Below, piece by piece: positions 23,475 to 36,366 of a DNA stretch of 64,000 nt. Within the stretch, counting starts at the first letter, position 1. Each line of letters starts with the position of its first letter. Under the pieces are notes generated by a model. It did no database searches. It saw only the letters and a program-made list of their open reading frames with translations, and was not told the DNA's origin. Source of the stretch: Lactobacillales bacterium (GTDB lineage Bacteria; Bacillota; Bacilli; Lactobacillales; Streptococcaceae); NCBI GenBank assembly GCA_031261175.1, contig JAISJW010000007.1, positions 12,204 through 76,203 of the forward strand, given 5' to 3'. The position numbers and the translations under genes were made by a program.

Positions 23475-24752
23475 CTAATCAATTAATTCGTAATAAGTGC
23501 TAGGTCCACTACCTACTCTTTTGACTTTCCCTCTTTCAACCAAATTAGCTAATTCACGCTTGACTTTAGCATCATGTAATTCTAGAATTTTGGCAATATC
23601 TGAACGTTTTAATGAACGTTTGCTTAATTCATTAATAATCAGTCTATCAGCAGCAATGTCATCATCGTAACTAATAACTGGCAAAGTTACCTTAATATAA
23701 TTTTCGCTAACTTCAAATTCCGGAAGCTCGAGAAACTCTCGATACTGCTCTTTAACTCTACGAATTCCCGTGGCAAATGTCTCAATTATTTTTATTCGGT
23801 GCAACACACTTGCTAATAGGTTGTTACGAATATCAGATACAGAACCCGCTTTATATTCTTCGGCTGAAATACCGTCAGGAAGTCCTCCCGGAGAGACAAT
23901 TTCTAGTCTATCTGAGAACATAGATATTCTAACATTGCTATTTATATCCCAATTTCGATGCGCTATCGCATTAGCCAACACTTCTTTAAAAGCTATCTCC
24001 GGAATGTGGATCCGTTGTTCTCTAGTATTTGCATTAACTACTTCATAAGGTGCATACCACTTGTTAAACATCTCTTTCGCTTGTTCATATTGCTCTAGAA
24101 TAGAAATTCCAACTAACGTCTTTCTATCCAGGAAAATATCATCGTTATCGCCAAATTTAACTATGTCAATACCAAATTTACGACTACTTATATCTGCTAA
24201 AAGTTCTGCCGTAACGTTATATTCATTTTTAACCAGCAATCCTAGAGTGCGCAAACCTTCATTGGTTAACTTCTCAATTCCCGTTTCTTTCTGCAAATAT
24301 TTTTCTAACAAATTGAACTTGAAATCGCGTTCCGCTACCGGCTTTTCATCGTAGGTGAATCTAGCGCTATGCAAAACCAAACGATTCATTTCGAACGTAT
24401 CAACAGCTACCGTAGTCGTTCCTTGCCTCTGATACACATGATGTCCAAAATAATATGGCTGTTTATCTCCTTTGAACACGTTTAAAATCACTATAGTTTT
24501 ATTTTCATAAATTTCTGAGCGTATTGAAAAAGGAGGGATTGGAGATACTTTATCATTGATAGAATTTGCTATCGATAATTCAAATTTATCAACTCCTCCA
24601 TTGATCCCAACGACCTCACCATCATCTTTAACTCCGAAAATTATTTCTCCACCACCATAATTAGCGAACGCACTTACCGTTTTATAAAAATTATCAGTTT
24701 TTTTCAATTTCAATTCAACAACTTCAGATTCTTTTTTGTTAAACATATTCAC
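23475..24752 (-). CDS. Schlafen/AlbA_2 domain + HATPase_c_4-like + C-terminal wHTH protein (often mis-annotated as RecG-like)
   Basis: N-terminal ESEVVELKLKK...TVSAFANYGGGEIIFGVKDDGEVVGI is AlbA_2-like. The central KEVLANAIAHRNWD...LEIVSPGGLPDG is HATPase_c_4-like. The C-terminal region is wHTH-like. Confidence 0.75.
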   Translation of the reverse strand: MNMFNKKESEVVELKLKKTDNFYKTVSAFANYGGGEIIFGVKDDGEVVGINGGVDKFELSIANSINDKVSPIPPFSIRSEIYENKTIVILNVFKGDKQPYYFGHHVYQRQGTTTVAVDTFEMNRLVLHSARFTYDEKPVAERDFKFNLLEKYLQKETGIEKLTNEGLRTLGLLVKNEYNVTAELLADISSRKFGIDIVKFGDNDDIFLDRKTLVGISILEQYEQAKEMFNKWYAPYEVVNANTREQRIHIPEIAFKEVLANAIAHRNWDINSNVRISMFSDRLEIVSPGGLPDGISAEEYKAGSVSDIRNNLLASVLHRIKIIETFATGIRRVKEQYREFLELPEFEVSENYIKVTLPVISYDDDIAADRLIINELSKRSLKRSDIAKILELHDAKVKRELANLVERGKVKRVGSGPSTYYELID

Positions 24753-25038: not shown

Positions 25039-25764
25039 CTAATATAAAGTCTTCAGTTCCTTCTTCGTTATCTCAATCCCCACGCGTTCAAACCCATCAA
25101 CCTGCTTATCAAACAATCCCTCGATAACCGAGTCCCGCACAACCGGCGTTCCATAATGCAGCAGGCGATGACAACACGGACAAAGGCATGAAATGTTTTC
25201 AACCACATCAATCCCGTGCTCAAACAATGGCTGGTAACTAATCGGCACCAGGTGATGCGCCTCCATATACGGCTTCCCGCTCGCTCGCGCCACAAACGTC
25301 TCGTGCCCTTCGTTCACCGCACACTGATAACCCGCTAGAGCAAGTCCCCTCGCTCCGACGAGCGGATTGCGAGCGTAATAGCTTTTCAGTCCCTCGACCT
25401 TGCGCACGACCGGCTGCGGCCCTTCGGTCCACCTGATTTCAGAATTCTTGGCAACTAATCCCTGCACCTCATTCTCAAAATCATAATCAGTCCGATCAAA
25501 AATCACTTCGTTACGGCTAGAAATAAATTTAATATAATTGCTGACAGCAGCCGAATACATCCGCTTCGGATCCTTTTCCATCAGCGATTCCATCTTTTTG
25601 ACAACCAAAAGCAACTCGCCAAGCTCATCTAAATCATCAATCTCATACATATCCCGACTGATTTCTTTAAATATTCTAGTCGGTGCCTGAATAGCGTATT
25701 TACGAACAGAACTTTCGGCAAGTCCTTTCAATTTCAAATAGTTTTCAAAATTTTGTTTATTCAT
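25039..25764 (-). CDS. HNH endonuclease with an uncharacterised N-terminal domain
   Basis: C-terminal HNH motif EAHHLVPIS...CLCPCCHRLLHYG. 241 aa. Confidence 0.8.
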   Translation of the reverse strand: MNKQNFENYLKLKGLAESSVRKYAIQAPTRIFKEISRDMYEIDDLDELGELLLVVKKMESLMEKDPKRMYSAAVSNYIKFISSRNEVIFDRTDYDFENEVQGLVAKNSEIRWTEGPQPVVRKVEGLKSYYARNPLVGARGLALAGYQCAVNEGHETFVARASGKPYMEAHHLVPISYQPLFEHGIDVVENISCLCPCCHRLLHYGTPVVRDSVIEGLFDKQVDGFERVGIEITKKELKTLY

Positions 25765-25871: not shown

Positions 25872-27763
25872 TTATTTGATTATTTTGCGCTCTTCATCAA
25901 TGATTTTTATAGCATCTGTTATTTCATCTTCACTATATGCAAGAGCCTTCAACATCTCTTTAATTAATATCTTTTGTCTTGCTTCTATTTTGTCTTTGTT
26001 CCAAGCCTTTTCATCTTTTAAAGTTTTATTTAACCACAATCCATTATTAAAGCCAATGTTACTTACCGTTCCATCTTCCTTAGTTACAACGGCATTTTGT
26101 TTTGACTCGAAAGAACTATTGGCTAGATTTGAATTATAATCTGTCAAAGTTAAATTTCCTATTTTATGTACAACTTCTGCTTGGATTTCACCAGCTTTCT
26201 CTTTATCTTCATCTAAAGCTTTACTCCAGCCGTTAGGCAGTTTATCATCTTGTGGAAGTATGTGTTCTATACTCCATTTCGAACCCTCAATCCATAAATT
26301 TTTAGAATACTCATTAGTATCTGGTTCGTTATTCTCCTCAACTTGGCGCAATAAATAATTAACGGCATTTCTAAATTCTAAATATGCATCACCATTTAAC
26401 GCTTTTGCAACCAGTGTCATATCACTTGATTTCTCTTCTAATTTTTGTTCTACAATTTCAACAATATTATCTGCTTTCAATTGCTTATCTTCAATTTTTT
26501 TTATCAAATCCATAAATAAATCTTCTAACGTATTAGATGCAGGCGAATTAGTAATTGATTTTTTAGCAAAAAACACAATTAATTTATCTAAAATTTTATT
26601 AATAAGTTTTGCATTCATATCAAATGAATCTTTATTTTTCAACAAGCGCATTAACAATATAACAGAAAAAAGCCCTTCAGTCATGCGCAACTTATTAAGT
26701 AATTTGCGCGTATTATCATCTATTAAATCTAAATATTCTTCAGTTGATTCTCCAATTAATATCGAGAATATTTTTGCATTAGTCGATAAATCTTCTAAAA
26801 ATGCGCTTGGAGATTCGTTTTTTATAGCTATGATTTTTTCATATATTGTTATTACGTTTTGTTTTCCTGCTTTGTGTCCCAACGGAAACTCTTGGCTAGA
26901 AGTTTGCCCGCTTCCCACAGCGTGATTATTATATTCTTTACGGAAAGCATCGTAATTGTATCTTAAAAAACGCTCGTGATTTTGTGTTTTTTCTCCCAAA
27001 TAATCCTTTATTGTTTTCCAAATTTCACCAGCATTTTCTACATTTTCTTCTTTTTTTTCCACCTCGGAAATTACAATGTTTTTCACTAAATCAGTTATCG
27101 TTAAAGGCTCTCCTCTGTAATTAATAGCACCGAATAACAAACCCGCATCTGCAACGCTAGCTACATTGATATCTATTAATACTAAAGAATTTACTTTACG
27201 TAAAAGTTCCCATATTTTTTCATTGTCATCAGAAATATAACTTTCAATCGATTTCTGATAAAACGCAAATGCAGTATGCATTCTTCTGTTTTTAATATTA
27301 GGTATTGATTCTGTTCCTAGCGTATTCAGACCGTTTTCTTTTAATAAAATTTGCCATGAAATATCATTATATTCTTCCGCTTGCGGACTAATTACAATTG
27401 ACTCTAACGTTGGATCATTGCGCATTAACCTATTTTGCAATCCAGCGTATTCTTCGGTCAACGTTCTATCATCCGCATTAGGGACTAACCCTTTATCTTT
27501 GATTTTATTTAAAATAGCCAATAAAAAATACTGGTTGTAATTAGTCTTTGTTGGCCATCAATTATTTCGAAAACTTTATCATCTTTTGTTTTTTTTGTAA
27601 TTACAGATCCTATAAAATATTCATAATCATTGTCTGTTATATCCTTAAATAAATCTTCCTGATTTTTTTTAGTCCAAGAATAGGGTCTTTGGTAAACTGG
27701 AATCTTATAACGTTTATCCGTTAAAAATTCTTTAATAGTAAATCTTTTTGGCGTAATGTCCAT
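25872..27763 (-). pseudogene. GmrSD-type (DUF262 + DUF1524) type IV restriction enzyme gene, frameshifted
   Basis: N-fragment 27509..27763 carries DUF262 motifs (KIPVYQRPYSW, IIDGQQRL). C-fragment 25872..27521 carries a DUF1524/His-Me motif (WSIEHILPQ...HKIGNLTLTDYNSN). The frames differ, and the junction lies at a homopolymer run near 27523..27528. Confidence 0.75.
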
Positions 27764-27796: not shown

Positions 27797-29242
27797 TTAT
27801 ATAAATAAATTTTTAATTTGCTTGTATATGTATTTCTTGTTAATCCACCATGCTTGTTTTGTCATATAAGTATCAGAATGTTCTTCTCTTACTGTTTCCG
27901 GAAGGTTTTTCCATTTTATTTTCGATGGAAGTTCATCGCTATGAGGTCCTTCAACATACGATGTTTGTGCGGCAGATACTTTGCTAAATAAAATATTTGT
28001 TTTCGATGAATTTATAAAATTAGTTGTTCTTTTTCTAGATTTTTCTGTTTCTATATAAGTTATTTCAACGCCGTTTTTTATTTTATAGACAGTATCTTCC
28101 CAAACGGCTCGAACACTTCCCTCTATATCTTCGTCAGGAACACAAAAGAATTTGGCTCCTTTAAGATATTGTTCTTCGCCTTGCTTCTCGAATACAATAA
28201 TTAGGAACTTAGTGTCTTGTAAAAATTCTCTTAGTTCACTTGTCTCCCAAGTTTCTCGTGATGTTTCATGGAATTTGTAATTGAATAATTTAAATTCTTC
28301 TTTTAACGCTGTTTTCCCTTTTTCAACAACTACCGTTTTAGGCTTTATATTAGCTTTTTGGAATTCTTGAACAACCTCCAAATCATTATCCACATCAAGA
28401 ATGTTCTTTATTATTTGTTTTGCTATCTCAGGATTAGTTGCCTTTGTATCATTTTTTATAGAAAAGCGTTTTGCTAAATCGTCTCTTGATTGCCCAGAAA
28501 ATTTATTTATTTTTTCCAAAATAAATTCTTCTAGTGATTTTGTTTTCAGTTGTTTCGAATCTTTAATAACTGACTCACTAGGTTCGTCTCCCAATACGTA
28601 AGTATTATACAAATAAGTCATGTATCCACTTTTTAAAGAATAAGCTCTTTGTTTTGCTTTTTTATCAGAAAAAGGCTGATTTCTTACGGTATCTGAATTA
28701 GCTCCTTTAGTGCACGGAGATAAATATGTTGTCAAACTTTCTGAAAGCTCATGAGCTTTACCTTGTTTTACATAGTCATCAATGATTTCCCAGTCTTTCT
28801 TTATTATTTCGAAATCGACCTCGTTTTTCATCATTTCGTATAAAGCGACGTTTTTTATTACATACTCATCTTTTGTTTTGCATCGTTCCCATTCATAGAA
28901 AGCCAGCTCGAGAGTTCCATTTTTATAAAGAAAGTGGCTCGATTCAAATTTCTCATTTACTATTTCCATATAGTTTATGATATTAAGAACAAGACGTTCT
29001 TTCGCACTATATTTTCCATTTTTATTCTTTTTTATCGGAGTGGCTTTTAATTCAACCCCCACTTCTGTTATATCAGGCGCACTTTCGTTATCCGGAGCTT
29101 TTCCGAACCACGCCTCCCAGGCGGCCCCCACTCCGTGCTTTCCGCCTGCAAGTGTTTTTCCGCCATTAATTTCTTTGACGGTCTTATCTACAGCTTCCAG
29201 AGCTCTTTGGTGAACTTCTGCCTTTGATTTGAATTTATCCAT
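27797..29242 (-). CDS. Sau3AI-family type II restriction endonuclease (GATC-type, MutH/Sau3AI fold)
   Basis: 481 aa. Long stretches match my memory of Sau3AI: GVELKATPIKKNKNGKYSAKERLVLNIINY, KAHELSESLTTYLSPCTKGANS, AKQRAYSLKSGYMT. Confidence 0.85.
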   Translation of the reverse strand: MDKFKSKAEVHQRALEAVDKTVKEINGGKTLAGGKHGVGAAWEAWFGKAPDNESAPDITEVGVELKATPIKKNKNGKYSAKERLVLNIINYMEIVNEKFESSHFLYKNGTLELAFYEWERCKTKDEYVIKNVALYEMMKNEVDFEIIKKDWEIIDDYVKQGKAHELSESLTTYLSPCTKGANSDTVRNQPFSDKKAKQRAYSLKSGYMTYLYNTYVLGDEPSESVIKDSKQLKTKSLEEFILEKINKFSGQSRDDLAKRFSIKNDTKATNPEIAKQIIKNILDVDNDLEVVQEFQKANIKPKTVVVEKGKTALKEEFKLFNYKFHETSRETWETSELREFLQDTKFLIIVFEKQGEEQYLKGAKFFCVPDEDIEGSVRAVWEDTVYKIKNGVEITYIETEKSRKRTTNFINSSKTNILFSKVSAAQTSYVEGPHSDELPSKIKWKNLPETVREEHSDTYMTKQAWWINKKYIYKQIKNLFI

Positions 29243-29251
29243 ATAAGCACC

Positions 29252-30562
29252 TTATCCATTTTCTATGCTGTACAACTCATCACCAATCCGTTTTACGATT
29301 TGCGTCACCAACGCGTTACCCATGAAGAACATGCGCATTCTATCGCTGACTTCAACTTCTTTCCCATCTCTGGTTTTCTTCACTTTTGTCCAATCTTTCG
29401 GGAAACTCTGCAATTGTTCCGCCTCTATTGGCGTTAAAATTCGGTACCGACCATCTGTTTTCAAAAAATGTGTCGATCTATTGATTGACCCTTCCGAAGT
29501 CAGCATCGTTCTGCCTGGAAGATGCAATTCATCTACTGGTGACATTCCACCTTCTGCATAAATCCACTCGTGACCTTCTTTTGTCACTTTCGGAATTTTT
29601 TTAGCTGCGCGAAGATATTGGAACTTCTCGATTTTTTCTTTATCTGAAATATAATATTTCTCGTCAATTTCTTCTTTAGACTGAATGATTTCGGCAAGAG
29701 GAATCGGGCTTTCATCCCCAACTGGCTCCGTATCAATAGTGTAGTATTTTCCGAAACGCATAACACCAGAATTCCAAACCTTACCGCTAAAGTTGTCAGA
29801 TATTTCTACCATATCATCATCTAACTCATAGGCCGCATGACGATTTTTAACTGCTGTTTCTTTCACAGGAAATTGACTAGCGAATAAACCTTCTTTGAAT
29901 ATATACTCATCATATTTATCTGCTTGGAATGCTTTTTTTGATTTAGCCGTATCATTGAATTGCTTGTTAATTTTTTTTGCAAATTCGGTATCATTTCGAT
30001 AAACAAAAATAAATACACGTCTTCTTCGTTGTGCACATCCATAATCAGCAGCGTTAATAACGCGCCATTCAACTGAATAATTTAGTTTGTTGAATTCTGA
30101 CAACATGATTGCGAAATCTCGTCCGCGTTGTGTAGATGGTGACTTCAACAAGCGATCGACATTTTCTAAAACTAAATATTTAGGTTTTATGTTACTTACA
30201 GCTCTAGTAATCTCCCAAAATAGAACACCCTTTTTACCTGTAATACCTGTCTCGTTAGTTAAACTACGCGCCACCGAATAATCTTGACAAGGGAAACCAC
30301 CGACAATCAAATCAGCATCCATTTTTTTGAATTCTTTATCCGTAATTTCAGCAATGCTCTTATTAATATTTTCACTATCTGAAAAATGATAATCATAAAC
30401 TTCAAATGCATCTTGCGCTTTTTTCCCTGGCTCAAACTGGTTGGCCCACTTCGTTTTATAAAACTCCGGATGGCTTGCTTCAAACCCAACCCTGAATCCT
30501 CCGACACCTGCAAATAACTCTAATACTTTTAATTCTTTACTCACAATATTTACGAGCTCCAA
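29252..30562 (-). CDS. DNA (cytosine-5)-methyltransferase, partner of the Sau3AI-like enzyme
   Basis: C5-MTase motifs LELFAGVGGFR (I), GGFPCQDYS (IV), ENV (VI), QRRRRVF (VIII), GNA (X). The start may be GTG 30544 rather than TTG 30562. Confidence 0.9.
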   Translation of the reverse strand: MELVNIVSKELKVLELFAGVGGFRVGFEASHPEFYKTKWANQFEPGKKAQDAFEVYDYHFSDSENINKSIAEITDKEFKKMDADLIVGGFPCQDYSVARSLTNETGITGKKGVLFWEITRAVSNIKPKYLVLENVDRLLKSPSTQRGRDFAIMLSEFNKLNYSVEWRVINAADYGCAQRRRRVFIFVYRNDTEFAKKINKQFNDTAKSKKAFQADKYDEYIFKEGLFASQFPVKETAVKNRHAAYELDDDMVEISDNFSGKVWNSGVMRFGKYYTIDTEPVGDESPIPLAEIIQSKEEIDEKYYISDKEKIEKFQYLRAAKKIPKVTKEGHEWIYAEGGMSPVDELHLPGRTMLTSEGSINRSTHFLKTDGRYRILTPIEAEQLQSFPKDWTKVKKTRDGKEVEVSDRMRMFFMGNALVTQIVKRIGDELYSIENG

Positions 30563-30577
30563 AACTCAAGAGTTTTG
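30560..30577. promoter_or_regulatory. 18-bp palindrome in the leader of the methyltransferase operon
   Basis: caaaactc-aa-gagttttg. Read in the sense of the minus-strand gene it is caaaactcttgagttttg, identical to 30715..30732. It lies just downstream of a TGgTATAAT box (minus strand, + strand coordinates about 30604..30612). Confidence 0.6.
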
Positions 30578-30669
30578 AAGCTTCCTTTCTGAAATTTAAG
30601 AATATTATACCATAAAAGCGGCTTTCTATCTACCTTTTTCACCTTTGAACATCGCAGATCAATAGATTT

Positions 30670-30705
30670 AAAAGCCCAGAAAACTTGCCATTTTCTGGGC
30701 TTTTT
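30670..30705. other. terminator-like hairpin inside a divergent promoter region
   Basis: aaaa gcccagaaaa cttgcca ttttctgggc ttttt. It is a 10-bp stem flanked by an A-run and a T-run. No annotated gene ends here on either strand. Confidence 0.5.
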
Positions 30706-30714
30706 AGCTATACC

Positions 30715-30732
30715 CAAAACTCTTGAGTTTTG
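30715..30732. promoter_or_regulatory. 18-bp palindrome in the leader of the NUDIX/type IV operon
   Basis: caaaactcttgagttttg, 13 nt upstream of ATG 30746. Confidence 0.6.
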
Positions 30733-30745
30733 AACCCTTGAAAAT

Positions 30746-31147
30746 ATGGCTAAAAAACTAATCAAAGTCGTTGGTGCAATCATCATAAAAGACGATGAAA
30801 TCCTTTGCGCACAGCGGGGTTATGAAAAGTCGCTACCAGGTCTTTGGGAATTTCCAGGTGGAAAAATCGAGCAAAACGAAACTCCTCGAGAAGCTCTGAA
30901 AAGAGAACTTGTCGAGGAGTTACATATCGATGTTCAACCGGACGAACAACCGTTTGAAACGACTACCTATGAATATGATTTTGGCATCATCGAACTGACA
31001 ACTTTTATCTGTGAAATCACCGACAATCAACAGCCTATTTTGACCGAGCATATCGCCATCAAATGGCTCAAACCATCAGAACTAAACGAACTCGATTGGG
31101 CGCCAGCCGACTTGCCCGCAGTTGAGAAATTAGGAGGCCTCCAATGA
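30746..31147 (+). CDS. MutT/NudG-type NUDIX (deoxy)nucleoside-triphosphate pyrophosphohydrolase
   Basis: NUDIX box GLWEFPGGKIEQNETPREALKRELVEELHI. 133 aa. The stop overlaps the start of the next gene (ATGA). Confidence 0.85.
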   Translation: MAKKLIKVVGAIIIKDDEILCAQRGYEKSLPGLWEFPGGKIEQNETPREALKRELVEELHIDVQPDEQPFETTTYEYDFGIIELTTFICEITDNQQPILTEHIAIKWLKPSELNELDWAPADLPAVEKLGGLQ

Positions 31148-33945
31148 GCGAACATCTTGAACTTGCGCTAAGAAAAGGGTTCATCAACTACAATCAGGAT
31201 GCGTTTGACGTTTATGAGCCGAAGTTGATTACGAACGATCAGGAAAATAGAATTTTCACGCTGAACGCTTTGCAGGAACAGCTCGACACCTGTAAATCTT
31301 TTTTTATTTCGGTTGCATTCGTTACTCAGTCGGGGCTAAACGGGCTCAAAAGTCACTTCAGCGATTTGGCGTCGAACGGTGTGCGCGGGCGGCTTTTGAC
31401 TAGCAACTATCTCGCGTTTAACTCGCCGGAGGTTTTTCGCGACTTGCTGAAGATTCCGAATCTCGATGTTCGCATCACCGAGGCGGCTGGTTTTCATGTT
31501 AAGGGTTATCTGTTCGAGCAGGCCGACTATGAAACGATGATTATCGGCAGTTCTAATCTGACAATGAATGCGCTCAAAACGAATGTCGAGTGGAATGTGA
31601 AGCTGACTAGTTTCGAGAATGGCGATTTGCTTCGTTCTACTAAGAACGCTCTCGAAACGATGTGGGATGCCGCTAAGCCGTTGAACGAAGATTGGATTAA
31701 CATCTATAAAATCAGCTGGAAGCCTAAGTTCTCTAACGTTATTTACGAGCCCGAGTCCGTTTATTCGACCATTCGGCCTAACTCTATGCAATTGAAGGCA
31801 CTTGCCGGGCTGCAACAACTTCGCAAAGAAGGCAAGTCAAAAGCGCTCCTTATCTCCGCTACCGGGACCGGAAAGACTTATCTTTCCGCTTTTGAAGTTC
31901 GGCAAGTTAATCCCGAAAGGATGCTGTTTATTGTCCATCGCGAGCAGATTTTAAAGGCAGCGATGACTACTTTTCAAAACGTCATTGGCGGTTATGATTC
32001 GGATTTTGGTCTGTATACCGGAACTTCGAAAGATCTTAATGCGAAATATTTATTCGCTACAATCCAATCGATTTCTAAGGATGACGCACTTTCAGAATTT
32101 GCTCGTAATCACTTCGATTACATTATTATCGATGAAGTTCACAAAGCTGGTGCTGCATCTTATTTGAAAGTTCTTGATTATTTCGAACCATCGTTTTTAA
32201 TGGGGATGACAGCGACTCCTGAGAGAACCGATGATTTCAATATTTTTGAATTATTCGATTACAACATAGCTTATGAAATTCGCTTGCAAGAAGCGATGGA
32301 AGCTGACCTACTATCACCTTTTCATTATTTTGGTGTTAGCGATTTTGTCCGCGATGGATTAACGGTTGATGAAACCTCTAAATTACAATACTTAGTCGCT
32401 GATGAACGCGTTGATTATTTGCTCAAAAAAATTAAATATTACGGTGTCTCTGGCTCGAAAGTTCGCGGGTTAGTTTTCTGCCCTAGCATCGAGGTCGCTA
32501 TGGAAATGAGTTCTGCCTTTAATGATCGCGGTTTTAGATCGGTCGCTCTTACGGGTGCCGCCTCAATTGCCCAACGGGAAGAAGATGTCGCCCGGCTAGA
32601 AACTGGGCCGCTCGATTATATTTTTACGGTCGATATTTTCAATGAAGGCATCGATATTCCGAGTGTGAATCAAGTTATTCTGATGCGCAATACAGAATCT
32701 AGCATTATTTTTATTCAGCAACTAGGGCGCGGTTTGCGCAAACATTCTTCCAAGGAATTTGTGACGATAATTGATTTTATCGGTGCCTATAAAAATAACT
32801 ATATGATTCCGGTTGCGCTGACTGGCGATAATTCTGGGAATAAGGATAATTTGCGACACGGAACTTTTGACACTAATTATATCAGCGGCGTTTCCTCTAT
32901 TAATTTCGAGGCGGTGGCTAAAGAGCGCGTGTTCGAGGCTATTAATAACGCTAAGCTAGATGATGCTAAGCGTTTGCGCGAAGCTTATCATGCTTTAAAA
33001 AATCGTTTGAATCGCAAGCCTATGCTCATTGATTTTCTCGAACAAGGTTCTGTTGATCCATATCTAATTGCAAATAAATATGATTCTTATTATTCGTTTC
33101 TCGTTAAAATAAATGAGGCCGAATCCGTTTTAAATATTTCTGCTCAAAAACTTTTAAAATTCGCTTCTCGAGAGTTATTGCCTGGTCTTCGGCGGGATGA
33201 ACTGGATTTATTAGTTGATTTGTTAGCAGGAAAATCAGTTTCTGCCGCTTCACTTGCCCACACTAATGTCCTTTCCGTTTTAGACTGTTCTTGGTTTAGC
33301 GGAAGCGATAAAAAGACGTACGAGGGTTGTGCGCTTATAAAAGTAGATAATGAAATTATTAATCTATCTGATGATTTTCGAAGAGCTTTAGATAACGATT
33401 ATTTTGCACTGTTATTTAGCGATTTACTTGCCACGGGTCTTGAAAAAGCGAAGAAATATTCAGCTGCACGTTTGACTCGCTATGCTAAATATACGCGGAA
33501 GGATGCCATTAAATTGCTGGGGTGGAACGAGCAGATGGTGGCGCAAAATATCGGTGGTTACGCGTGTAACGAAAATGATTTTGCTATTTTTATTACGCTA
33601 CATAAGGGTGATGATTTCGCTGGCGCACAGATGACATACGAGGATGAATTGATTTCGCAGAACACTTTGAAATGGTTCACTAAGTCGCCTAGGACGATTA
33701 ATTCTCCCGAAGTTGTCAAACTTTTAAACTACTATAGCGATTACGGTATTCACGTATTTATGCAAAAAAACGATGATGAAGGTGGCATTCAATTTTATTA
33801 TTTAGGCGAGGTTTACCCGGATAAAAATTCTATTTTAGAGGTTGAAAAGCCTGTAAAAGATGGCACTCTGAAACCTGTCGTTGAAATGAATTTGCATTTC
33901 AAAGAGCCTATCGATTATAAATTATTTAAATATTTAACCGATTAA
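31144..33945 (+). CDS. SauUSI-like enzyme: PLD-family nuclease + SF2 helicase + DUF3427-like C-terminal domain (putative modification-dependent type IV restriction enzyme)
   Basis: PLD HxK motif HVKGYLF...IIGSSNLT. Helicase motifs SATGTGKT, IIDEVH, MTATPER, QQLGRGLR. The C-terminus (GWNEQMVAQNIGGY...WFTKSPR...FYYLGEV) resembles DUF3427. Confidence 0.75.
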   Translation: MSEHLELALRKGFINYNQDAFDVYEPKLITNDQENRIFTLNALQEQLDTCKSFFISVAFVTQSGLNGLKSHFSDLASNGVRGRLLTSNYLAFNSPEVFRDLLKIPNLDVRITEAAGFHVKGYLFEQADYETMIIGSSNLTMNALKTNVEWNVKLTSFENGDLLRSTKNALETMWDAAKPLNEDWINIYKISWKPKFSNVIYEPESVYSTIRPNSMQLKALAGLQQLRKEGKSKALLISATGTGKTYLSAFEVRQVNPERMLFIVHREQILKAAMTTFQNVIGGYDSDFGLYTGTSKDLNAKYLFATIQSISKDDALSEFARNHFDYIIIDEVHKAGAASYLKVLDYFEPSFLMGMTATPERTDDFNIFELFDYNIAYEIRLQEAMEADLLSPFHYFGVSDFVRDGLTVDETSKLQYLVADERVDYLLKKIKYYGVSGSKVRGLVFCPSIEVAMEMSSAFNDRGFRSVALTGAASIAQREEDVARLETGPLDYIFTVDIFNEGIDIPSVNQVILMRNTESSIIFIQQLGRGLRKHSSKEFVTIIDFIGAYKNNYMIPVALTGDNSGNKDNLRHGTFDTNYISGVSSINFEAVAKERVFEAINNAKLDDAKRLREAYHALKNRLNRKPMLIDFLEQGSVDPYLIANKYDSYYSFLVKINEAESVLNISAQKLLKFASRELLPGLRRDELDLLVDLLAGKSVSAASLAHTNVLSVLDCSWFSGSDKKTYEGCALIKVDNEIINLSDDFRRALDNDYFALLFSDLLATGLEKAKKYSAARLTRYAKYTRKDAIKLLGWNEQMVAQNIGGYACNENDFAIFITLHKGDDFAGAQMTYEDELISQNTLKWFTKSPRTINSPEVVKLLNYYSDYGIHVFMQKNDDEGGIQFYYLGEVYPDKNSILEVEKPVKDGTLKPVVEMNLHFKEPIDYKLFKYLTD

Positions 33946-34035
33946 AAAGGGCTATGCTGTGTGATTTTTAGGTCGCATAGCATAGCTTTTCGGGTTTAAT
34001 TGCCCGGGTTTCGCTCTTTTCGAACAAAAGAAAAA

Positions 34036-34063
34036 CACCTCACCGGATCCGGGCGAGGTGTTT
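34036..34063 (+). terminator. weak terminator-like hairpin after the helicase gene
   Basis: cacctc-a-ccgg-at-ccgg-gc-gaggtg followed by only ttt. Confidence 0.35.
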
Positions 34064-34151: not shown

Positions 34152-34313
34152 CTATTCTTCTAGGCCGATGGCCTTTCTTTGCAAACGGTTAGACTCACTT
34201 GCTACGTACATAAGGAACGTTCTGAATTCTTCCGGAGTAGCATTTTTGGATAATTCTCCATAACTTCTATTATATTTTTCAGCGATTGCTTCTGCTTTTT
34301 CTTTTTCAGTCAT
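34152..34313 (-). CDS. 53-aa hypothetical protein overlapping the end of the zeta-like gene
   Basis: My own translation: MTEKEKAEAIAEKYNRSYGELSKNATPEEFRTFLMYVASESNRLQRKAIGLEE. Strong RBS ggagga 8 nt upstream. The ATG overlaps the upstream stop (AATGACTGA). Below the ORF-track size cutoff. Confidence 0.4.
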   Translation of the reverse strand: MTEKEKAEAIAEKYNRSYGELSKNATPEEFRTFLMYVASESNRLQRKAIGLEE

Positions 34314-34973
34314 TTAGTTTATCCTCCAATTCTTCTCTAGTATATTCATTTGGTAATGCTGATTTGATATTTATTTCATTTTTAATTATACCATAAATAT
34401 TATTTTGATAGTCCTTGAAAACTATATTAACTTCAATTTCTTTATCAAATTTTTCTTTCGCCCTAATAATATTTTCACGCGCTTTAAAATATGAATTGAT
34501 AAATCTTTCTTTCGGCACGAATCTTCCCTCGACAATTTCGCGCGCTCTAGTAAACTCCCAAGCTATGTATGGATCCTGATAGATGTAGTAAACCGTTACA
34601 TCATACCCCCTTTTCAAAGCCCTTTCAATATTTTGTTGCGCCCTTTCCAAAGCAAATGTCCCGTCTAATATAAATGAATATCCGCTCTTTAACACGTGAT
34701 CAAGTGTAATATCAACCAATCTCGCTGCACCTCTTTGGAAATCGTTTGAATTACTCCCGTCGTATCCTGGGAATTTACTCCTGAATACATCGGCATCTAT
34801 ACGCATAAATTATCAATTAATTCTGTCAGCGCAATTGCCGTTTCCGTTTTTCCCGACCCTGGGCTACCTGCCATAAAAATTGCTACTTTGTCCTCCTTGA
34901 CATCATTTCCTTCTATAACTTCCTCGATAAATTTTTGCTTGTTCTTTTTCGCAAACTCTAAACTTTCATCCAT
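34306..34973 (-). pseudogene. zeta-toxin-family P-loop kinase gene, split by a frameshift
   Basis: The N-fragment (about 34797..34973, 58 codons by my reading) contains Walker A MAGSPGSGKT. The C-fragment 34306..34806 (RIDADVFRSKFPGYDG...) is in another frame. Coordinates of the N-fragment are +/-1. Confidence 0.6.
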
Positions 34974-35521
34974 TAATTTTTTCTCCTTCTCTTTTTTATC
35001 CGCCCCACCGTCGACTTCCCGACCTTAAAATCTTTAACTGCTTGGGCAATTGAGTACCCTCCCGCGGCTAAACGGCGTATCATTTCCGCCTCTTTTTCTG
35101 GGCTCAATTTGCGCGGGCGACCTTCGCGGAAATTGGGATTGTGAAGCCGTGCGTATAACTTGCCCGCTTGGGTTCGCTCGATGATCATGTCGCGCTCCAT
35201 TTCGGCAATCGAGAGAAGCGTCCGGAGGAAGAACTTGCCCAGATAGCTCGATTCGATGATACCGAGATTCAGGACGTTGAAAGTGACGCCAGACTCGAGG
35301 AGCGGCTCGATGAGGTTGAGCGCCAGACGGTCGAGCTTGGTCACAACGAGCATATCGCCTGGTCGAATGCGTTTAATCAATTTATTCAACTCCTTGCGAT
35401 CTGTCGTCGTCCCGGTCACCTTCTCCTTGAAGACCTTACCGACGTGCGCCTTTTTCAATTCTGCGATTTGCGTCGACAAATCCTGTTGAGTCGTCGAAAC
35501 TCGTGCGTATCCATATATCAC
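34973..35521 (-). mobile_element. small serine recombinase (resolvase/invertase family)
   Basis: N-terminus (M)IYGYARVSTTQQDL with the catalytic Ser, and a C-terminal HTH. GTG start. The region after DRL looks shorter than usual. Confidence 0.85.
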
Positions 35522-35530
35522 CGGCTTCTC

Positions 35531-36211
35531 TTAGTCATACCATCTCATCTTCCCATCTTTATAATCATTTAGCAACTGCCGTTCTTGCTCATCCAGCTCC
35601 CACTCGGTATAATTATGAGCTATTTTAACAAGCCATTCCGGCGAACCTTCCAAGACGATTCCATCGATGAAAAACGACCTCATTTCTTCCACTAATTTCC
35701 TCTTTGGGTCGGAGCTGTTCTTGTTATGCAATTCCACTGTATAGACTTGTGAAAAGTTCTTCAGTATTTTTCCTTCTTCGTTAATCATTTTGAATTTTTT
35801 AATTCCTGGGCCTTTGTAATCAAATGCCCATTCAAAATCTAAAAAAGCAATTTCGTGATTGACTTTCCATGATATTCGATCATCATCGTAACCAAGAATA
35901 TTAGTCGTTCTGCTATAAAATTGGCCGTGATTAAAGCGGCAACGCGATGGCAGCGTTATTTCGACGACCTCGGTTCCAAAGCTGTCCTCTAGATGAACTC
36001 TCGCCGCAATCTTAACGTTATAATCATCAATACAATTTCTATATTCATAGTCGCGATAAGTTTCATAATAGTGATATGGATTAATTATCTCAACCCATTT
36101 TACGGGAAGGTCAGTAATATCCCTAATTAAATCTCTTAGCACCTCCTCGTTTCCCTTGCTTCCTAGTATTTTTTTGAACACTAACGGTTCATTTGGTTTT
36201 TCTTGAATCAT
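35531..36211 (-). CDS. PD-(D/E)XK nuclease family (PDDEXK_2 / Rpn-like putative transposase-nuclease)
   Basis: The N-terminus (FKKILGSKGNEEVLRDLIRDIT) resembles the Rpn/PDDEXK_2 family. Start taken at ATG 36211 (RBS gagaggaaag). The longer ORF-track N-terminus runs into repeat B3. Confidence 0.5.
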   Translation of the reverse strand: MIQEKPNEPLVFKKILGSKGNEEVLRDLIRDITDLPVKWVEIINPYHYYETYRDYEYRNCIDDYNVKIAARVHLEDSFGTEVVEITLPSRCRFNHGQFYSRTTNILGYDDDRISWKVNHEIAFLDFEWAFDYKGPGIKKFKMINEEGKILKNFSQVYTVELHNKNSSDPKRKLVEEMRSFFIDGIVLEGSPEWLVKIAHNYTEWELDEQERQLLNDYKDGKMRWYD

Positions 36212-36230
36212 TTTCTTTCCTCTCTTTCTA

Positions 36231-36366
36231 AAAGTGGCCCCCAATTTACTTTTTTTCATTAAAACAGGGCTTTTTTGTCGTTCAAGGGTCACTATATATT
36301 TTATACTGGCCCTTTGCCGACAAAATATGGCCAAAACTCTAAATTTTTCTTAATCCGGGGCCAGTG
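36231..36366. repeat. nested-palindrome element, family B copy 3
   Basis: Arms aaagtggccccc ... ggggccagtg. Central hairpin caagggtcactatatattttatactggccctttg. The right arm overlaps the last codons and stop of the gene at 36350..37063. Confidence 0.65.

Follow-up and report, generated by a model that had tools for sequence, protein, structure and literature searches.

The locus lies in a 64,000-nucleotide stretch of a Lactobacillales genome (the window) and consists of two genes on the forward strand: a NUDIX hydrolase gene of the MutT/NudG-like family (30746..31147, 133 aa; PADLOC family PDC-S07) and a gene for a 933-aa SauUSI-like protein with PLD nuclease, SF2 ATPase and DUF3427 regions (31144..33945). 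Reading the sequence bore out both open reading frames at the coordinates given by an earlier sequence-only reading of this DNA, together with the ATGA overlap between them. At the junction (31132..31147, forward strand), the start codon of the SauUSI-like gene overlaps the NUDIX stop codon in ATGA (31144-31147), and an AGGAGG Shine-Dalgarno sequence (31132-31137) lies within the NUDIX gene at a spacing of 6 nt from the SauUSI-like ATG. The two genes are one operon, and the earlier annotation was right on this point. A GC-rich palindromic hairpin (34033..34063, no strand assigned), located about 90 nt 3' of the SauUSI-like stop codon as a terminator-like consensus match only, probably marks the operon end.

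Upstream and divergent, at 183 bp from the operon (180 bp in the sequence-only reading), lies a C-5 cytosine methyltransferase gene (29252-30562, reverse strand; Pfam DNA_methylase, 8.2e-62). With the gene for a MutH/Sau3AI-like endonuclease (27797-29242, reverse strand; Pfam MutH, 1e-26; PADLOC REase_II, 1.8e-144) it forms a type II R-M module (27797..30562, reverse strand), which we treat as context outside the operon. The divergent control region (30560..30732, no strand assigned) is shared with the methylase gene and contains two exact copies of an 18-nt palindrome, CAAAACTC-NN-GAGTTTTG, at 30560-30577 and 30715-30732, each 13-15 nt 5' of the start codon of its own gene. Between the copies is a strong terminator-like hairpin (30671-30708; RNA fold z = -4.65). 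Two palindrome matches in the window compare with 0.03 expected; no copy was found elsewhere in the window or in 80 related loci, and no comparable palindrome was found upstream of NUDIX in the other loci. The pair is embedded in a low-GC island (30-42% GC versus about 47% in the backbone) that spans roughly 23.4-38.3 kb, about 15 kb in all, between Era/RecO/HD-domain genes at one end and FBP/SufB/PheT at the other. As had been proposed, the operon occupies the middle of this defence island, away from housekeeping genes.

For the 933-aa protein, the sequence-only reading had suggested the tripartite PLD/SF2/DUF3427 architecture of SauUSI and had recommended Pfam searches of both proteins. Pfam matched all parts, with PLDc_2 at residues 69-157 (1.5e-7), ResIII at 210-361 (1.7e-37), Helicase_C at 436-533 (1.2e-13) and DUF3427 at 673-932 (6.8e-63), and the PADLOC model mREase_IV matched over the full length (6.7e-266). 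A phmmer comparison with the SauUSI structure 7CLG (E 9.2e-257) aligned residues 8-932 to 11-952, end to end, so that phmmer, PADLOC and identity all indicate full-length colinearity. The approximate domains are a PLD nuclease (1-190), an SF2 DExH ATPase (210-605), a coupler (606-780) and an SRA-like target-recognition domain (TRD, 781-933). Identity to SauUSI is 45% overall, i.e., 49% in the nuclease, 55% in the ATPase, 31% in the coupler and 40% in the TRD; the nearest relatives of the two-gene unit are 58% identical.

All motifs listed earlier (HVKGYLF, IIGSSNLT, SATGTGKT, IIDEVH, MTATPER and QQLGRGLR) were found in the translation. The H-x-K motif of the N-terminal PLD nuclease is kept, with H118/K120 aligned to SauUSI H119/K121; the H119A mutant of SauUSI is a nuclease-dead control (PMC7913695). 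The SF2 ATPase contains GTGKT (Walker A), DEVH (Walker B), TATP (motif III) and QQLGRGLR (motif VI), and T245 of Walker A and R532 of motif VI align with SauUSI T256 and R544. An alanine replaces SauUSI R283, which contacts a sulfate and belongs to none of the six canonical motifs of the published description. In the SRA-like DUF3427 region, five of the six predicted 5mC contact residues are kept (Y806, F816, I817, D834 and W844, matching SauUSI Y831, F841, I842, D858 and W868), the exception being M829, which is G804 here. From the 45% identity and the kept catalytic and pocket residues, we infer SauUSI-like activity for the window protein.

The small protein is of the MutT/NudG type as proposed, matching Pfam NUDIX (2.1e-19) and, over its full length, PADLOC PDC-S07 (1.6e-52). 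Its Nudix box is intact in the catalytic residues (G39-KIEQN-E45-TPREALK-R53 E54-L-V-E57 E58-L-H-I), and G38, G39, E42, E45, R53, E54, E57 and E58 are 100% conserved among 77 SauUSI-linked homologues. The sole change is that of the final G to H59, a position that is variable in the linked clade and is K in 5X1X, the S. aureus NUDIX protein encoded directly upstream of sauUSI, to which the window NUDIX is 55% identical over the full length. A literature search found no publication on 5X1X or its substrate. The C-terminal motif, formed by E101-H102 and A119-P120-x-D122, is kept as EH...APxD in 77 of 77 linked NUDIX proteins and is common with NudG (APAD) and Q5LBB1 (AEAD); MutT has EG...PAN.

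Against family models, the window NUDIX reached 94.9 bits with the NCBIfam NudG model NF007834 (cut-off 156), 82.7 with the MutT model NF008044 (cut-off 148) and 82.6 with TIGR00586 (cut-off 97.9), thus staying under all three cut-offs. Among characterised enzymes with solved structures, Q5LBB1 (3GWY) scored 82 bits, NudG (2RRK) 71 and MutT 51, at identities of 39-40% for Q5LBB1 and NudG and 34% for MutT. Judged from these comparisons, the window NUDIX is NudG-related and not a NudG equivalog. In a MutT-rooted neighbour-joining tree, which has no support values and uses ~130 aligned positions, NudG and Q5LBB1 fall within the SauUSI-linked NUDIX radiation. Proteins 53-58% identical to Q5LBB1 adjoin SauUSI-type genes (in Fusobacteriota and metagenome contigs), and Q5LBB1 itself, from B. 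fragilis, and two close relatives (86% and 65% identical) lie in housekeeping gene contexts. For E. coli NudG, 5-methyl-dCTP pyrophosphatase activity is listed, and the enzyme also hydrolyses CTP. Q5LBB1 hydrolyses 5-Me-dCTP and 5-hydroxymethyl-dCTP with a kcat/Km of ~4-5 x 10^6 M-1 s-1 (PMC5158307).

Conserved NUDIX-DUF3427 synteny in other genomes, on which the sequence-only reading had made its idea depend, was found in 77 of 80 species-level loci, in which the NUDIX gene is adjacent to a SauUSI-type gene. NUDIX lies upstream on the same strand in 61 of these, downstream and convergent in 15, and downstream on the same strand in 1. In the 61 loci the gap takes values between -28 and +128 nt; overlap is thus frequent without being obligatory, and the variable gaps and the 15 convergent arrangements indicate that co-translation is not required. 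No flanking gene at all is shared in 52 of 70 same-genus pairs of loci, and the persistence of NUDIX adjacency in three arrangements with differing flanks suggests that the pair moves as a cassette. NUDIX distances and SauUSI-like distances are correlated (Mantel r = 0.60, a value reached in 0 of 2000 permutations), a correlation confounded by species phylogeny. Islands gather defence genes, which inflates adjacency in general.

Adjacency to a C5-methyltransferase is real in the window but is not conserved among NUDIX-SauUSI loci: none of 80 loci from genomes and none of 38 from metagenomes has one. At loci without SauUSI, the C-5 DNA methylase is the commonest neighbour family of NUDIX (4 of 35 dereplicated loci, first of 95 families), and in one such locus a homologous methyltransferase (51% identity) and endonuclease (35% identity) adjoin a 59%-identical NUDIX gene. 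Other partners in the absence of SauUSI are McrA-like HNH, EVE-HNH and McrBC-like genes, the association with non-SauUSI 5mC modules amounting to about 7 loci only. The McrA-like and McrBC-like calls are insecure because matches of the former are confined to the HNH part, while the latter is the PADLOC candidate PDC-M26. Some NUDIX relatives pair with an SLFN-g3/DUF2075 helicase that has no known 5mC link.

The window locus is a divergent member of the nudix-sauUSI unit that was originally reported from Staphylococcus aureus. The sequence-only reading had considered the pairing of NUDIX with a SauUSI-type gene undescribed, and this was wrong: it was reported in 2011 (PMC3141236), again in 2012 and 2020, and in a S. 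suis preprint. Xu et al. (2011) described a conserved NUDIX gene beside sauUSI, with at least 60 linkages (PMC3141236). Purified SauUSI alone cleaves 5mC DNA (PMC3141236; PMC7913695). Restriction was retained in the S. aureus nudix deletion of Monk et al. (2012) (PMC3312211; data not shown there), for which neither an effect on the transformation barrier nor toxicity was reported (PMC3312211). MutT homologues beside SauUSI homologues were noted by Bell et al. (2020) (PMC7641849), PDC-S07 and type IV RM co-localised in 23 of 23 cases in the S. suis preprint, and PADLOC carries the NUDIX family as phage defence candidate PDC-S07.

Motif, tree position and genomic association with 5mC enzymes make removal of 5-modified dCTP the most likely role of the NUDIX protein, with 5-methyl- and 5-hydroxymethyl-dCTP as probable substrates and a protective function suggested by the comparative evidence. 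The joint explanation that we favour, and whose chances we judge to be about even, is that a SauUSI-type enzyme shreds modified DNA while the NUDIX protein clears modified dCTP as a safeguard. The C-terminal SRA-like domain would flip out 5-methyl- or 5-hydroxymethyl-cytosine, this recognition would activate the SF2 motor for translocation along DNA, and the dimeric N-terminal PLD nuclease would then shred the modified foreign DNA. Shredded foreign DNA, the host's C5-methylated DNA and salvage could all supply modified cytosine nucleotides; the model presumes that 5-methyl-dCMP is phosphorylated to the triphosphate in Bacillota. Acting in trans on the nucleotide pool, the NUDIX protein, a predicted catalytically intact, NudG-like nucleoside-triphosphate pyrophosphatase, would convert 5-methyl-dCTP and 5-hydroxymethyl-dCTP to the monophosphate and PPi and block random re-incorporation of modified cytosine into the chromosome. 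Such stray 5mC would expose the chromosome to attack, since SauUSI initiates on hemimethylated DNA (bioRxiv 10.1101/2025.10.16.682607) and cleaves single-site DNA (PMC7913695). The NUDIX protein would be a conditional safeguard rather than a cofactor. Removal of 5-modified dCTP against self-restriction was not found published in our literature search.

A wider version of this proposal is possible, if tentative: the NUDIX clade may be a portable safeguard of the nucleotide pool that serves enzymes reading or writing 5mC in general, not SauUSI alone. SauUSI-type, McrA-like, EVE-HNH, McrBC-like and C5-methylase R-M systems would then be interchangeable partners, and destruction of 5-methyl- and 5-hydroxymethyl-dCTP would prevent modified cytosine from entering the chromosome. 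In modification-dependent restriction, this would correspond functionally to what a protective methylase does for classical R-M systems. In the window, the NUDIX protein could serve the Sau3AI-like C5-methylase system and the SauUSI-type enzyme at once, the former filling the genome with 5mC and the latter attacking 5mC in the wrong sequence context.

We think it rather unlikely that the NUDIX protein is an ordinary antimutator, i.e., a MutT-type 8-oxo-dGTPase or broad housecleaning enzyme that is functionally unrelated to its neighbour and co-inherited by adjacency only. Database names of relatives and of 5X1X ('8-oxo-dGTP diphosphatase', 'Mutator mutT protein') and the 82.6-82.7 bits obtained with the NCBIfam MutT models point in this direction, but the protein stays under every MutT equivalog cut-off and has D at the N of the MutT PAN motif, N119, which presumably reads 8-oxoguanine. 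An antimutator would also fit the intact restriction in the S. aureus nudix deletion (PMC3312211), as well as the finding that the PDC-S07 model matches 99% of Enterobacter genomes and thus catches housekeeping NUDIX proteins. It accords poorly with adjacency in 77 of 80 species despite three arrangements and changing flanks, with the central position of the gene in a low-GC defence island, and with the enrichment of other 5mC enzymes among the neighbours of NUDIX genes that lack SauUSI.

A role as an anti-phage effector that depletes dCTP, or the 5m-/5hm-dCTP needed by phages, and so complements the nuclease is improbable. The PADLOC candidate status, the occurrence of the family in defence islands and the efficient hydrolysis of 5-Me-/5-hydroxymethyl-dCTP by characterised relatives (and of CTP by NudG) are consistent with it, but the protein consists of a 130-aa catalytic domain alone, which without a sensory or regulatory part could not be switched on by infection, and no anti-phage phenotype is reported in the literature found. 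Among phages of Bacillota, incorporation of modified dCTP as the nucleotide is not known to be common, and the starving of hmC phages, which the sequence-only reading had offered as an alternative, is without specific support. Adjacency to a C5-methylase R-M system would also be left unexplained, as such systems methylate after replication. Least credible is an accessory factor needed for the SauUSI reaction or tuning it, for example by clearing pyrophosphate or nucleotide products or by binding SauUSI. Helicase-type ATPases yield ADP and Pi, not PPi; the tight operon, whose codons overlap in the window as in several relatives, the product removal suggested by the original authors in 2011 (PMC3141236) and the phylogenetically confounded Mantel correlation are outweighed by the unaided cleavage by purified SauUSI, the restriction barrier kept in the nudix deletion (PMC3312211), the 15 loci with convergent, separately transcribed genes and the pairing of the NUDIX clade with unrelated nucleases and methylases.

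In S. aureus, SauUSI is what chiefly stands in the way of genetic manipulation and horizontal gene transfer. Enzymes related to it are widespread in Bacillota, and the conserved NUDIX gene beside it has been remarked on several times from 2011 onwards. If the NUDIX protein clears methylated dCTP, this would explain how modification-dependent enzymes spare their own chromosome during nucleotide recycling, a form of self-protection by pool clearing for which the literature searched holds no described precedent. It would also give PDC-S07 a function and be relevant to strain engineering and to feeding modified nucleosides to bacteria. With a 5mC-dependent nuclease sharing its island with a C5-methylase system, the window is a natural test case. 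If the NUDIX protein is instead a plain housecleaning enzyme, the locus is one more SauUSI homologue.

Compared with SauUSI, the window protein is alike in domain order, length (933 vs 953 aa), full-length alignment, PLD H-x-K, Walker A/B and motif VI, and the S. aureus locus likewise has a NUDIX gene immediately upstream. It differs in being only 45% identical, the coupler and TRD having diverged most. SauUSI M829, a predicted DNA-inserting residue, is glycine in the window protein and in eleven aligned Lactobacillales relatives, so the sequence context preference may differ from that of SauUSI. Whereas S. aureus USA300 has no C5-methylase, the window host carries one close to the operon. The S. 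aureus NUDIX protein 5X1X (SAUSA300_2432 / Newman Sae2385, 'Mutator mutT protein') resembles the window NUDIX in size and in how its gene is placed and oriented with respect to the restriction gene, but the junction is TAA-T-ATG with a 1-nt gap in S. aureus and an ATGA overlap in the window. MutT of E. coli (1MUT) shares the NUDIX fold, the Nudix box and recognisable homology (51 bits, 34%), yet the window protein is less similar to it than to the cytosine-nucleotide enzymes and has EH...APAD in place of EG...PAN. With NudG (Orf135; 2RRK) and Q5LBB1 it has in common the fold, the size and the EH...A-x-A-D C-terminal motif that is absent from MutT, although at 39-40% identity and under the NudG equivalog cut-off.

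The NUDIX and SauUSI-like genes that had been read from the sequence alone were recovered as described. The NUDIX ORF (133 aa, 30746-31147, + strand) matches Pfam NUDIX and the PADLOC 'phage defence candidate' PDC-S07 (1.6e-52). The 933-aa SauUSI-like ORF (31144-33945, + strand) carries the Pfam domains PLDc_2, ResIII, Helicase_C and DUF3427 (6.8e-63), and PADLOC classified it over its whole length as a type IV methyl-directed restriction enzyme (6.7e-266); all motifs quoted in the sequence-only reading are present in its translation. At the junction ATGA (31144-31147, + strand) the stop codon of the NUDIX ORF overlaps the start of the 933-aa ORF, and an AGGAGG ribosome-binding site lies within the NUDIX gene, 6 nt before the second start codon. 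The pair sits midway in a ~15-kb low-GC island between Era/RecO and SufB/PheT, where the same reading had placed it.

The linkage of the two genes was surveyed by scanning one genome per species and keeping the best 80 SauUSI-like loci. A NUDIX homologue was directly adjacent in 77 of these 80 loci (61 upstream on the same strand, 15 immediately downstream and convergent, one downstream on the same strand), which bears out the expectation of a conserved NUDIX gene beside DUF3427 helicases. Since 52 of 70 same-genus pairs had no flanking gene in common within 4 kb, the two genes move as one cassette. The variation of flanks even within genera also speaks against the NUDIX gene as a fixed housekeeping anchor beside an integration hotspot, as does its location inside the island of the window. 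Translational coupling is not the defining feature, given gaps of -28 to +128 nt in the 61 upstream same-strand pairs and the 15 convergent loci. Selection therefore does not preserve co-translation as such, as the 15 convergent pairs show, and an enzyme that works in trans on a small molecule better fits the pattern. A mirror-tree comparison of NUDIX and SauUSI-like proteins gave a Mantel r of 0.60, with 0 of 2000 permutations as high, but was given little weight as evidence of co-evolution because it is not separable from shared species phylogeny.

The sequence-only reading had known of no described NUDIX and SauUSI-type pairing. This claim of novelty does not stand, as the pairing was published in 2011, 2012, 2020 and 2025. 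Xu et al. (2011; PMC3141236) reported a conserved MutT/NUDIX gene, SAUSA300_2432, linked to sauUSI, and at least 60 SauUSI-like enzymes with a NUDIX neighbour whose function 'remains to be examined'. The nudix gene of S. aureus Newman was deleted by Monk et al. (2012; PMC3312211), MutT homologues adjoin SauUSI homologues in Streptococcus (Bell et al., 2020; PMC7641849), and an S. suis preprint (2025) reports co-localization of PDC-S07 with type IV RM in 23 of 23 cases. Literature searches found no paper describing PDB entry 5X1X, the NUDIX encoded directly upstream of sauUSI, and nothing mechanistic under the locus tags SAUSA300_2432 or SAOUHSC_02791. On one metagenome contig (L085), a gene reaches 2077 bits against the SauUSI structure 7CLG; the gene directly upstream (stop TAA, one base, ATG) matches the deletion primers of Monk et al., and its NUDIX product is 99% identical to 5X1X ('Mutator mutT protein') and 55% identical to the window NUDIX.

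None of the catalytic Nudix-box residues varies among the 77 linked homologues, which argues that the SauUSI-linked NUDIX is maintained as an active hydrolase. Against solved structures, with 5X1X set aside, the window protein scores best with Q5LBB1 of B. fragilis (3GWY) at 82 bits; at 71 bits, E. coli NudG (2RRK) comes just after two functionally unassigned NUDIX structures, and MutT reaches 51 bits. Q5LBB1 acts on 5-Me-dCTP and 5-hydroxymethyl-dCTP at ~4-5 x 10^6 M-1 s-1, with much lower values for canonical NTPs (PMC5158307), and NudG is the classical 5-methyl-dCTP pyrophosphatase. Neighbour joining with MutT as root (~130 positions, without support values) placed both characterized 5-methyl-dCTPases among the SauUSI-linked NUDIX proteins. 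NUDIX proteins 53-58% identical to Q5LBB1 adjoin SauUSI-type genes: P0290 is followed after 7 nt by a 961-aa PLD-helicase-DUF3427 gene, P0319 overlaps a 974-aa SauUSI-type gene, P0314 adjoins a degraded one, and in Psychrilyobacter atlanticus (L170/L171, 856-7220) a single NUDIX lies between two full-length SauUSI-type paralogues on the same strand (963 and ~940 aa).

The reverse search, with 5X1X as query against metagenome contigs, gave 38 SauUSI-linked loci and 17 that were clearly not linked. Linkage drops with divergence, from 22 of 25 loci that score at least 130 bits with the window NUDIX to 8 of 17 that score below 110 bits. Among the SauUSI-less loci (n = 35, dereplicated), C-5 cytosine DNA methylase was the commonest of 95 neighbour families, with four loci: L093, whose C5-methylase and MutH/Sau3AI-like endonuclease have 51% and 35% identity to those of the window; L114, in the order NUDIX, C5-methylase, SacI-type endonuclease; L123, with an R-M pair including a C5-methylase; and L161, in the order NUDIX, EVE-HNH, C5-methylase. 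McrA-like HNH proteins, matching in the HNH part only, occur at two further loci, and one locus has an McrBC-like AAA_5 protein and DUF2357/PD-(D/E)XK pair, the PADLOC candidate PDC-M26. These mutually unrelated partners, which read or write 5mC, suggest that 5-methylcytosine nucleotides are what connects them, in a small sample and with defence genes clustering in islands anyway. No paper generalizing the NUDIX to 5mC readers and writers was found in a literature search of incomplete coverage. Other NUDIX relatives have an SLFN-g3/DUF2075 helicase as partner instead, a second recurrent pairing: on two unrelated contigs (L165, 4001-6402; L172, 693-8399) this helicase comes 0-1 nt after a NUDIX that has 57-59% identity to the B. 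fragilis 5-methyl-dCTPase. One of the contigs belongs to Vibrio sp. RE86, and there the pair lies between type I HsdR and an McrB-like gene. At six loci (L121, L122, L126-L128, L136) a more distant NUDIX shares one stop-to-stop frame with an MFS transporter, whether as a true fusion or as separate genes, and a DeaD/DbpA RNA helicase comes next. This housekeeping-looking context marks the edge of the defence-linked NUDIX clade.

For the function of the NUDIX we propose, with about even confidence, that it hydrolyses modified triphosphates derived from shredded 5mC DNA and thereby guards the chromosome from the SauUSI-type nuclease. The nuclease would shred 5mC/5hmC DNA to modified mononucleotides, for which the host's own C5-methylated DNA would be a further source, and these could be phosphorylated again and built into DNA at random. 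Stray 5mC would put the chromosome at risk because SauUSI starts translocation on hemimethylated sites (bioRxiv 10.1101/2025.10.16.682607) and cuts single-site DNA (PMC7913695); hydrolysis of the modified triphosphates would prevent such incorporation. No candidate C5-methylase was found in S. aureus USA300, so ordinary cultures would be expected to contain little 5mC and could do without the safeguard. The nudix deletion of Monk et al., made without loss of the restriction barrier, fits this safeguard model. The data sharpen the question of NUDIX function, which has gone 15 years without explanation, into a directly testable hypothesis.

Of the other explanations, a plain antimutator that merely hitch-hikes with the nuclease appears unlikely. 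The MutT/NudG-type label of the sequence-only reading is right at the family level. Against the curated equivalog models, the protein scores below threshold for MutT and for NudG alike. NudG and Q5LBB1 share the motif EH...A-P-x-D with the SauUSI-linked clade, whereas MutT has EG...P-A-N. The MutT asparagine reads 8-oxoguanine, and the NudG aspartate is required for substrate recognition. A check on whether Q5LBB1 lies beside a type IV enzyme showed its relatives at 86% and 65% identity, and likewise P0341, in housekeeping contexts. A stand-alone effector depleting the nucleotide pool is less probable still. Matches to PDC-S07 alone are no evidence of a defence role: 99% of Enterobacter genomes are reported to have one (PMC12851794), and the model there is most likely picking up housekeeping NudG/MutT. 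That the NUDIX is a cofactor of the nuclease is highly improbable, being contradicted by the nudix deletion (PMC3312211), by Xu et al. (PMC3141236), by the structural study (PMC7913695) and by the convergent loci. The 2011 idea that it removes pyrophosphate from ATP hydrolysis fails because the motor yields ADP and Pi and the NUDIX is no inorganic pyrophosphatase.

The proposed safeguard has a particular setting in the window. A type II R-M module of a C-5 cytosine methylase and a MutH/Sau3AI-like endonuclease (27797-30562, - strand; endonuclease PADLOC REase_II, 1.8e-144) is transcribed divergently from the NUDIX-SauUSI operon, methylase first, which places a 5mC writer and a 5mC-dependent nuclease 183 bp apart, in agreement with the ~180 bp noted earlier. 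As a conserved third partner the methylase was rejected: none was found within 4 kb in the 80 genome loci or the 38 SauUSI-linked metagenome loci, and the window is the only one of ~118 SauUSI-linked loci with a C5-methylase detected at that distance. L173, with an RE_SinI-family gene next door, may be a second. The side-by-side arrangement in the window implies that the two specificities are compatible. Sau3AI-type systems make GAT(5m)C, and the reported SauUSI preference is S5mCNGS. Were the window methylase to do likewise, its methylated C would follow a T and lie outside that preference. The sequence context preferred by the window enzyme could itself differ from that of SauUSI.

Between the divergent genes, an 18-nt palindrome, CAAAACTC-NN-GAGTTTTG, is present in two exact copies (30560-30577 and 30715-30732), one 13-15 nt before the start codon of each gene (C5-methylase, NUDIX) and both reading alike on their own gene's mRNA strand. 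A strong terminator-like hairpin, GCCCAGAAAA / TTTTCTGGGC followed by a T-run, lies between them (30671-30708). These elements could form a shared operator or RNA element, and co-regulation of the R-M module and the NUDIX-nuclease operon is possible. A conserved operator upstream of NUDIX was rejected: the window palindrome is absent from all 80 related loci, and palindromes with arms of at least 8 bp occur 5' of NUDIX in 2 of 61 loci against 3.3 expected.

The island contains further restriction genes. A GmrSD-type (type IV) gene (25872-27763, - strand) is split by a frameshift, as a pseudogene or by assembly error into an 84-aa ORF (27509-27763; GmrSD_N profile positions 1-76) and a 549-aa ORF (25872-27521; the rest of GmrSD_N and GmrSD_C) that overlap by 13 nt. 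A 241-aa HNH protein (25039-25764, - strand), whose nuclease part matches the PADLOC mREase_IV model PDLC03656 (8e-12), may be another modification-dependent nuclease of the same island; its homologues directly adjoin NUDIX in two SauUSI-less loci (L125, L153). Schlafen AlbA_2 with HATPase_c_4, an N-terminally truncated zeta-toxin ORF (profile positions 48-195), a serine resolvase and a weak PDDEXK_2 match (23475-24752 and 34306-36334, - strand) are signs of a mosaic, mobile defence island.

The architecture claimed for the large protein is confirmed by comparison with SauUSI (7CLG), to which residues 8-932 align (E 9e-257) with 45% identity overall and 49% in the nuclease, 55% in the ATPase, 31% in the coupler and 40% in the target-recognition domain. 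The window protein retains the catalytic H118/K120 of the PLD nuclease, the threonine of Walker A and the arginine of motif VI. Among the six residues predicted to hold the flipped 5-methylcytosine (PMC7913695), five are kept (Y806, F816, I817, D834, W844), whereas the inserting methionine is glycine in the window protein and its Lactobacillales relatives. Because the catalytic and 5mC-pocket residues are conserved, predicted activity on 5mC/5hmC DNA is well founded. An identical large protein was found in a Lactobacillales metagenome-assembled genome, with identity down to 58% in the next relatives. The feature exists and its annotation is right; the locus adds a divergent member to the known nudix-sauUSI kind.
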